From assembly GCA_047631715.1 (NCBI GenBank), contig JBLICC010000017.1:1-19315 (forward strand): DNA of 19,315 nucleotides, read 5' to 3'. The DNA comes from Alteromonas naphthalenivorans (lineage in GTDB: Bacteria; Babelota; Babeliae; Babelales; CAIQNR01). The translations under genes were made by a program, and so were the position numbers. The notes below the pieces were generated by a model. It made no database searches. It saw only the letters and a program-made list of their open reading frames with translations, and was not told the DNA's origin. Position 1 is the stretch's first letter, and the number at the start of each line of letters is the position of its first letter. Below, in pieces: positions 1 through 1,456 of this stretch.

Positions 1-352
1 GAGTTACCGGTAATTGATAGTTGTGATCTGTATATAAAGAAATTGCATGTTTTAAATTATTTGTAGTAGTAGGTATTGGTACTGAATGATCATCTTCCAA
101 ACCTAAGTCATCAACCAAATTATTAATAGTCTCAAACATATTATCTTCAGGATTATTTGTACTAAAAGGTAAATGAACTGTTTTCCCATCACTAGACGAT
201 AGTTTGACTGTTGTATCATGGCGTGCGGGTAATTGACGAGACATTGCAAGTGCTCTCTCATATTCTTCTGCACTAAAATCATCTTGTGCTGCACCAGCTG
301 CTTGTAAACTAACTATCGAAAATAAACTTAAAACTACTGCTAACTTCTTCAT
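1..352 (-). CDS. Secreted protein with UIM-like motif and Skp1-like BTB/POZ domain (partial, runs off the left edge; not in ORF track)
   Basis: Manual translation from ATG at 352 (GGAGG at 358-362, 5-nt spacer) is open for 117 codons: MKKLAVVLSLFSIVSLQA-AGAAQDDFSAEEYERALAMSRQLPARHDTTVKLSSSDGKTVHLPFSTNNPEDNMFETINNLVDDLGLEDDHSVPIPTTTNNLKHAISLYTDHNYQLPVT. It has a signal peptide, EEYERALAMS fits the UIM pattern, and VKLSSSDG...TINNLVDDLG...VPIP...LKHAI resembles the Skp1 N-terminal domain. Confidence 0.85.
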   Translation of the reverse strand, partial: MKKLAVVLSLFSIVSLQAAGAAQDDFSAEEYERALAMSRQLPARHDTTVKLSSSDGKTVHLPFSTNNPEDNMFETINNLVDDLGLEDDHSVPIPTTTNNLKHAISLYTDHNYQLPVT

Positions 353-395
353 TTTGACCTCCATCAAAGAATTATAAAATCTTAATACTATTATT

Positions 396-425
396 AGGAT
401 AGCAAATCGAAATACTGCAAAGCAA
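396..425 (-). promoter_or_regulatory. Putative sigma70-type promoter of the Skp1-like gene
   Basis: Minus strand TTGCTT-N18-TATCCT, with TGC (extended -10 TGn) directly before the -10 box; about 45 nt upstream of the ATG. Confidence 0.5.
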
Positions 426-607
426 GAGTTTTGTTGGATAAGTTGATTATAAGCTTAAATAGAGAAAATATAAGGCGGAAAAAGCTTGTCTTAACTGATA
501 TCAATTTTCGAGATCGGTTAAGAGCCATTCTAGGCGCGGATGTGCTTGATTAATAGTTAGTAATTCATCATCAGGAACTTCATTATCTCTCTATTTATTT
601 AAAAGCT

Positions 608-1456
608 CTATTCAAAGAATACTTGAGCATTAGGTACTTGTGCTTCAATGAGATCTTTTTGTTCTATAGTAAAGGTAGGATTATTTAATTTAAGACCAAG
701 TATTAATAAATTATTTAGATCGGTAAAAGCACCTTGAATAGTGGTGATTTGATTGTCACCAAGATCAAGTACTTGCAAACTATTTAGGTCGGTAAAAGCA
801 TTTTGAATAGTAGCGATTTGATTATTGCTAAGAACAAGTGCTTTCAAACTATTTAGATTAGTAAAAGTATTTTGAACAGTAGTAATTTGATTATTTTCAA
901 GATTAAGTATGTGCAGATTATTGAGGCCAGTAAAAGCATCTTGAATATCAGTAATACTGTTATCTGAAAGGTCAATGTCTATTATTGTTTGTATGTTTGG
1001 AATATTTAGTAGACCATTTAAAGAATTGATGCCTCTGTTTTCAAGGTCTAGCACTCCATCTTCAATATTCGGTATCGTGCTTGCATCAATTAAATCTTGG
1101 ATAGAAAAATATTTAGGAAGAGGATCTTTATTTGTTAGTTCTCTAGCACAGCAAGGACAGGACATTTTTTGAATGGTCCACTGATTAAAGCACTCTGTAT
1201 GAAAACTATGTCCACAAGCTTTACTGCCATCTTCTAGAGTTATTTGCGGCAATGTAAATTTGTTATCTTCTATTATATCATCACGACAAATAATACATTC
1301 TATAGCTTCAGCGGGTTTTCTAGTCAAGTGAGAGTATCCAATGCTAAATGCTGCTCGAGCAAGATTGTATGCTGGATTGTCGCCATCGCTAGAAGCTTGT
1401 GCTGGTGCAAAAAGTGTTCCTAGTACAAATACTAAGCTTAAAATTTTCTTATTCAT
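608..1456 (-). CDS. Secreted RING-H2 + leucine-rich-repeat protein (putative E3 ubiquitin ligase effector), 282 aa
   Basis: Start moved to MNKKI (ATG 1456) because GGAGG lies just upstream. Signal peptide ends APAQA. CIIC...CGHSFHTECFNQW...CPCC is a C3H2C3 RING-H2 (1148-1297). C-terminal 23-aa LRRs follow the pattern FTxLNxLxxLxLxxNQIxTIQxA. Confidence 0.9.
   Translation of the reverse strand: MNKKILSLVFVLGTLFAPAQASSDGDNPAYNLARAAFSIGYSHLTRKPAEAIECIICRDDIIEDNKFTLPQITLEDGSKACGHSFHTECFNQWTIQKMSCPCCARELTNKDPLPKYFSIQDLIDASTIPNIEDGVLDLENRGINSLNGLLNIPNIQTIIDIDLSDNSITDIQDAFTGLNNLHILNLENNQITTVQNTFTNLNSLKALVLSNNQIATIQNAFTDLNSLQVLDLGDNQITTIQGAFTDLNNLLILGLKLNNPTFTIEQKDLIEAQVPNAQVFFE

Follow-up and report, generated by a model that had tools for sequence, protein, structure and literature searches.

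A family of leader-bearing proteins of the bacterial phylum Babelota probably acts as single-chain adaptors of Cul1-type cullins, taking the place of both Skp1 and the F-box protein, and its members are likely secreted effectors. One of the proteins is encoded at the edge of the analysed window, beside a gene in which a RING-H2 finger occupies the head position on a related leucine-rich repeat (LRR) tail. We lean towards the broader reading that single-chain Cul1 adaptors were invented in Babelota by placing a captured Skp1 core, without the F-box-binding tail, on WD40, LRR or ankyrin repeats. The adaptors would make up a combinatorial kit, with about 290 profile matches spread over 70 of 261 genomes, that exchanges Skp1-like, RING, and possibly F-box-like and BC-box-like heads on shared tails.

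Gene pair at the contig edge

The window comprises bases 1–19,315 of contig C17 from a Babeliales genome of 845 kb, which is assembled in 58 contigs and rated 90% complete. Since the window starts at base 1 of the contig, position 1 is a contig edge. No contig end of the assembly overlaps with position 1, and no Logan contig piece among those listed for two runs reaches beyond it. The two adjacent minus-strand open reading frames next to the edge carry different heads behind hydrophobic, lysine-rich leaders, in agreement with the earlier note on this DNA; the leaders were called by a crude hydropathy scan. In both frames, the ATG is positioned about 7 nt downstream of GGAGG. The features of the pair are:

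608..1456, minus strand: RING-H2-LRR gene, 282 aa, with signal peptide, RING-H2, cap and LRR
1394..1456, minus strand: predicted Sec-type signal peptide of the RING gene (crude hydropathy scan)
1148..1300, minus strand: RING-H2 finger (C3H2C3), residues 53–103
998..1105, minus strand: shared N-cap (SIQDLID ... GINSLNGL), residues 118–153
611..997, minus strand: LRR solenoid (four motif matches) and C-terminal cap
2..352, minus strand: gene with the Skp1-like head, of which the first 117 aa precede the contig edge
299..352, minus strand: predicted Sec-type signal peptide, common to the Skp1-LRR paralogs (crude hydropathy scan)
230..274, minus strand: UIM-like motif that scores under the Pfam cut-off and is missing from the paralogs
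2..217, minus strand: Skp1-like BTB/POZ head, N-terminal part, with two strands, the ETINNLVDDLG helix, the VPIP strand and the next helix

In the same-genus genome G054, the TPR gene that neighbours the pair here is followed directly by valS, which is missing from the source assembly. Therefore, the RING/Skp1-like pair is absent from the G054 site, and in the source assembly it runs into a gap. The window encodes a multi-pass membrane protein with C-terminal TPRs (1590–3743, minus strand), which is 76% identical to its G054 counterpart and which we take to resemble TMTC-type glycosyltransferases. A leader-bearing protein with an 'LISDIH' motif is encoded at 5805–6650 (minus strand); its relative L109:1429–3447 has the motif 'LLADVH' and is fused to cap-LRR, possibly as an enzymatic head. 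The interval between ftsZ and a dehydrogenase gene is a variable insertion site, occupied by a headless cap-LRR gene in G054 (L082:1420–2505) and by two small unrelated open reading frames here (window 12506–13566). Both runs contain a variant contig of window positions 56–82 that carries four substitutions as well as a deletion offset by an insertion; it is a strain allele or another paralog.

RING-H2-LRR gene

The RING gene likely starts at position 1456; a further in-frame ATG, at 1468, coincides in part with the Shine-Dalgarno site. The previously proposed combination of RING-H2 and LRRs is borne out by matches to zf-RING_2 (E 2.7e-8, 34.4 bits against a cut-off of 27.3) and LRR_8 (E 1.2e-18), and the finger displays the C3H2C3 zinc-ligand pattern. 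A basic 'linchpin' residue after the last cysteine is common in RING-H2 E3 ligases, although not universal. The corresponding residue is alanine in the window gene, arginine or lysine in four other RINGs of the genome, and arginine in the same-genus homolog from G054. Direct recruitment of an E2 would be the role of the RING-H2 head.

The segments of the RING gene resemble genes in different places. Its leader DNA, at the 5' end, is 77–90% identical to the leaders of clustered genes on contig C26, and its RING domain resembles that of C53:3290–3889. The cap and first repeats share 44–51% identity with four of the Skp1-LRR paralogs described below and 33% with the fifth. Taken together, the similarities suggest a mosaic gene whose leader is of the C26 type, whose RING is of the C53 type and whose tail is of the Skp1-LRR type. 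The origin of the RING gene was not resolved in a quick-mode tree built on 98 columns from 76 cap regions, in which 42 of the 73 inner branches stayed open; the tree was not used as evidence. Further leader-bearing RING proteins of the source genome are encoded at C53:2343–3889, C13:5510–6064, C26:8999–9799 and C28:5358–6179. Three RING genes stand in tandem on C53, and the protein from C28 has two UIM-like motifs. The C26 cluster (C26:8523–12145) is a tandem array of small genes whose leaders are nearly identical and whose bodies are unrelated, which suggests shuffling of leader cassettes.

Truncated gene and its paralogs

The fragment in the window matches Skp1_POZ as its only family, with an E-value of 0.0074 and 16.9 bits, under the cut-off of 21.9, whereas its paralog C1:389–1711 exceeds the cut-off with 35.7 bits. 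The Skp1-like part of the module named in the earlier note is thus upheld through the paralog, and the UIM part is weak. The UIM reaches 15.3 bits, short of the cut-off of 21, and has no counterpart in the paralogs; a loose UIM pattern has 11 matches in 855 open reading frames.

Five complete paralogs of the truncated gene are located on contigs C1 (two), C2 (two) and C30, and have 35–52% BLAST identity over its length; the closest is C1:1730–3679. All five are composed of a leader, a Skp1-like head, a linker of about 95 residues, an SI[QR]xL[IM]D cap and 4–16 LRR motifs. The cap is shared by the RING gene, and the genome thus contains the domain-shuffled family of LRR proteins with swappable heads that had been anticipated from the window. 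The sequence HNYQLPVT, at which the truncated gene leaves the window, had been likened to the linker NKDPLPKYF. In the paralogs it aligns in the middle of the head domain, before the LDYLD helix and about 95 residues ahead of the cap, so the two sequences are not counterparts and the linker analogy is wrong. The LDYLD helix of the window head falls beyond the contig edge.

By comparison with the paralogs, the truncated gene would continue into an LRR tail. Its 3' part is unassembled, and the possibly incomplete relatives P0009, P0030 and P0031 share the linker and show no LRR, which would suit a gene with another tail or no tail, or a pseudogene, within a family that is itself real. Such an end is highly unlikely, as LRRs terminate five of five complete paralogs, and orphan LRR C-termini at contig ends (C42 and C58) face three heads cut at contig ends: C17, C1:2–382 and, by a weak match, C38:3–545. 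C42 resembles the C1 genes in DNA sequence. No overlap links C42 or C58 to C17. The LRR ending is accordingly the one we assume below.

A profile search of 1.84 billion representatives identified 21 proteins at E≤1e-10, those of the source genome included. Most of them have the same linker, cap and LRRs; P0020 is headless and P0009 has two heads. A word-index search with a Skp1-LRR paralog and the RING-LRR protein returned only the queries themselves, a result of low sensitivity, because the HMM searches found relatives. Tandem duplication, altered repeat numbers and exchange of heads appear to drive the expansion of the family.

Fold and sequence of the head

The head is of the BTB/POZ type by its modelled fold and of the Skp1 type by sequence. 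In a phmmer search of the PDB with a paralog head, all 24 matches were chains of the Skp1 family, with a best E-value of 3.9e-4. Since Foldseek of the full-length model showed LRRs alone, the head was modelled by itself, with a pLDDT of 92. All Foldseek matches of this model listed to rank 41 contain Skp1; the best has an E-value of 4.3e-3, and none among those listed reaches E≤0.001. In VIA-align, BTB, Skp1 and ElonginC tie at Z 7.3–6.2. The head aligns to the Skp1 chain 1ldk_D over 94 residues with Z 6.5, an rmsd of 3.2 and 29% identity, compared to 5–15% for BTB chains. In the Atlas, Skp1-type clusters are listed for the head at 0.91–0.92.

The tie in fold would also be expected of Cul3-type BTB adaptors like chlamydial PEX1, in which case the likeness to Skp1 would reflect ancestry and the partner would be Cul3 or another cullin. 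Pfam BTB matches weakly in 4 of 26 heads, and visual inspection suggests a BTB-like head in several cap-LRR proteins of relatives; the paralogs scanned in the source genome gave no Pfam BTB match. We nevertheless consider a Cul3-type partner quite improbable, as the PDB sequence matches are all to Skp1, the identity to BTB chains is low, and the best-kept columns form the Skp1-typical motifs TIKNL.ED and IPLP. From the Skp1-like sequence of the head, Cul1 is predicted as the partner rather than Cul3.

Conservation was evaluated in an alignment of 73 bacterial heads (one entered twice) and 27 eukaryote-like Skp1s. Between 59 and 90% of the heads retain the S-T-I-K, D, P-L-P and A-x-N-Y-L-D columns. 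Residues W87, F91, F100, C119, K120, V122, R135 and F138 (consensus numbering) are kept in 0–10%, and we presume that these lost positions face the F-box. The positions conserved in the 27 eukaryote-like Skp1s have a mean retention across the 73 heads of 0.45 in the core versus 0.14 in the tail. Almost all alignments of heads to the eukaryote-like Skp1 profile stop by position 145, and one reaches position 164. The F-box-binding region PF01466 was found in 0 of 261 phylum genomes, a count made without a positive control. In Skp1, the C-terminal helix contacts the F-box (PMC13237083). Judged from the alignments, the heads have lost the C-terminal F-box-binding region of Skp1.

Predicted docking on a cullin

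The complex was predicted for the head of paralog C1:1730–3679 and residues 1–265 of the protist cullin P0154, which served as a stand-in for the host cullin and was the sole cullin tried. The complex scores 0.75 and the best of three controls 0.53, a margin of +0.22 that narrowly passes the mark of 0.20; the mark is reached by 116 of 157 solved complexes and by 2 of 215 mismatched pairs. Because Skp1–Cul1 is a solved pair, the pass may reflect likeness to SCF. The contacts agree between runs to at least 82%, and the pLDDT of the partners is at least 83. The Cul1 label of P0154 rests on named relatives, and the viral cullin used to find P0154 scores human Cul3 above Cul1. In the model, residues 39–57 and 112–128 of the cullin, presumably the usual adaptor site, contact the TI..L..D helix, the IPIP strand and the DYLD helix of the head, together with a piece of the family linker.

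The columns of the predicted interface are more conserved than other core columns (0.43 versus 0.26; p 0.008 by permutation, and p 0.043 when the comparison is confined to eukaryote-conserved columns), figures that, like the retention figures above, are partly circular, since the heads were picked with Skp1 profiles and their kin are not independent. The window fragment keeps the main predicted interface residues E, T, L, D, L and P-I-P. We hypothesize that the Skp1-like head docks directly on a host Cul1-type cullin, so that the fused LRR tail offers up a host protein to be ubiquitinated and neither host Skp1 nor an F-box protein is needed. The proteins would be exported by the Sec and type II pathways and arrive in the host cytosol, where the LRRs would bind substrate and the assembly would have ligase activity. 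We infer export from the leaders and from two secretins in the source genome. Type II or Sec secretion and many proteins with signal peptides are reported in the accounts of Babelota genomes (PMC4378268, PMC4776705, PMC6561590). Babelota are described as strictly intracellular, with protists as their only characterised hosts (PMC12172432).

Docking of this kind fits an adaptor and a decoy alike. As a decoy or inhibitor, the head would bind the cullin and displace host Skp1–F-box modules, and the repeats would merely localise or stabilise it. Heads without a recognised tail occur: 10 of 40 hand-picked head proteins have no other Pfam match, some of them being truncated, and P0009 has its two heads without LRRs. 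A single decoy would suffice, however, whereas the many paralogs per genome with variable repeats fit diversification of targets, and a RING head is found on the same tail. Therefore, we regard the decoy as unlikely and retain the Cul1 adaptor as the probable function.

Distribution and head exchange in Babelota

Skp1_POZ of Pfam has matches in 46 of the 261 phylum genomes. A profile built from 26 heads of the family gives 292 matches in 70 of the 261 genomes and none in G054. Among the 40 hand-picked head proteins, the tails are WD40 (22), LRR (4), ankyrin (3) and peptidase M48 (1). A weak Skp1-like head fused to peptidase M48 is encoded at L033:334–1692. Scans of genomes with a single protein found five loci, four in Babeliales and one in an 'uncultured bacterium', the protein of which is also in the phylum search. 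Viral scans yielded zero and one loci. Giant-virus contigs L152–L158 encode full-length cullins, and L110 a stand-alone Skp1. Cullins were found in 0 of 261 phylum genomes, counted without a positive control, and the source genome, at 90% completeness, gave no F-box-like match.

The cap profile has matches in 65 of 261 genomes, partly through generic LRR similarity. Among 54 cap-bearing open reading frames, 12 have a head that scores on the Skp1 profile, and 18 are headless, with the cap at most 51 residues from the start. The others have different or truncated heads, some of them BTB-, F-box- or BC-box-like by eye only; a Pfam search gave no matching family for the F-box-like and BC-box-like heads, and SOCS_box has weak matches in 4 of 261 genomes. 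RING-H2 fingers occur in 143 of the 261 genomes and are frequently joined to ankyrin, WD40 or unassigned helical domains. A gene of G054 combines leader, RING-H2, cap and LRR (28% identity, E 2e-17), the one such case in the 20 RING regions fetched.

The comparison across related genomes thus revealed different heads on the same cap, as the earlier note had expected. The tandem pair L136:1504–2682 and 2716–3663 of G046 has a common leader, linker, LRRs and C-terminus (36%, E 2e-74) and differs in the heads, one weakly Skp1-like and the other formed by a short BC-box-like PTLKDLA helix without Pfam support. PSLQxLA heads similar to this short helix occur in L103 and L067. In G242, L111:495–2366 is a single chain that runs from a leader through a Skp1-like head and WD40-like repeats to a C-terminal RING-H2 and, as read from its sequence, combines cullin-type and E2-type modules.

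It is also conceivable that the proteins are not cullin adaptors and act in oligomerisation, bind another Skp1 partner, or are surface or vacuolar LRR adhesins away from the ubiquitin system. The LRR tail resembles extracellular-type LRRs, 18 of the 54 cap-LRR proteins examined are headless, and the export route is deduced. We find such a role other than cullin adaptor very doubtful, given that conservation is concentrated on the predicted cullin-facing surface, RING fingers are widespread in the phylum, and a Skp1-like head, WD40 repeats and a RING are joined in the G242 chain. Adaptors of a Cul1-type cullin remain our preferred interpretation.

Relation to known ubiquitin ligase adaptors

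The closest design is that of the chlamydial families described by Domman et al. 2014 (PMC4209131): NEX1 has an F-box or RING/U-box head, a conserved region of 50 residues and LRRs, and PEX1 is a BTB-LRR protein. According to that description, NEX1 and PEX1 share with the Babelota family the occurrence in amoeba-associated bacteria, expanded paralogs, alternative ligase heads, a conserved linker, C-terminal LRRs and tandem duplication. They differ in belonging to Parachlamydiaceae and in having F-box, RING/U-box or Pfam BTB heads and a type III signal, in contrast to the Skp1-type head and predicted Sec-type leader of the Babelota family. Interchangeable ligase heads on an LRR scaffold are therefore a known kind of system. 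Of the undescribed system proposed in the earlier note, the general design had a precedent, and the Skp1-type head is the part that is new, being absent from the literature searched. A natural fusion of Skp1 to a substrate receptor was not found in that literature, in which subscription journals were mostly outside coverage and supplements excluded. Preprints on trypanosome Skp1 paralogs and on an engineered Skp1–TIR1 fusion, as far as their accessible parts go, are not relevant precedents.

The Cul3 BTB adaptors SPOP and KLHL join a BTB-fold cullin-binding head to a substrate-binding domain in one chain. The Babelota proteins have the same single-chain design, which is a likeness in working; their head is Skp1-like in sequence and of bacterial origin. 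With eukaryotic Skp1 of SCF they share the BTB/POZ core with SDG, TI..L.ED, P.P and A.YLD motifs and the predicted docking on the N-terminal helices of the cullin. They differ from it in possessing a linker and repeat tail in place of the F-box-binding region, and a signal peptide. Giant-virus homologs (L110 and an Atlas cluster) also represent the Skp1 fold outside eukaryotes; L110, however, is a stand-alone protein of 168 aa without a leader or fused tail. In working principle the family resembles Cul3 BTB adaptors and NEX1/PEX1 effectors, but it belongs to neither group and is not a true Skp1.

The CRL-adaptor section of a 2026 review names only F-box effectors, AnkB, LegU1, VirF and GALA/RipG (PMC13720258). 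As described there, these hijack host cullin-RING ligases, as the Babelota proteins would, and AnkB and GALA/RipG have repeat domains; unlike the proposed adaptors, all four require host Skp1. The genome paper on Babela massiliensis reports RING, F-box, deubiquitinase, WD40 and LRR proteins and signal peptides, with type II as the only secretion reported (PMC4378268). Skp1 and BTB domains are not named in the main text of three Babelota genome papers (PMC4378268, PMC4776705, PMC6561590).

If the adaptor reading is true, a single chain that replaces Skp1 would be a new entry point into SCF and a natural Cul1 counterpart of the Cul3 BTB adaptors. Such a chain would open a route into SCF that is not listed for known bacterial effectors, and would provide a ready-made scaffold for targeted protein degradation; a cullin-recruiting head of about 110 residues that tolerates many tails would serve engineered protein degradation. 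Cultured pairs of Babelota and protists exist, and the adaptor claim is therefore directly testable. On the adaptor reading, a large effector family would acquire a function open to testing, in a phylum of parasites of protists where control of the host is almost unstudied.
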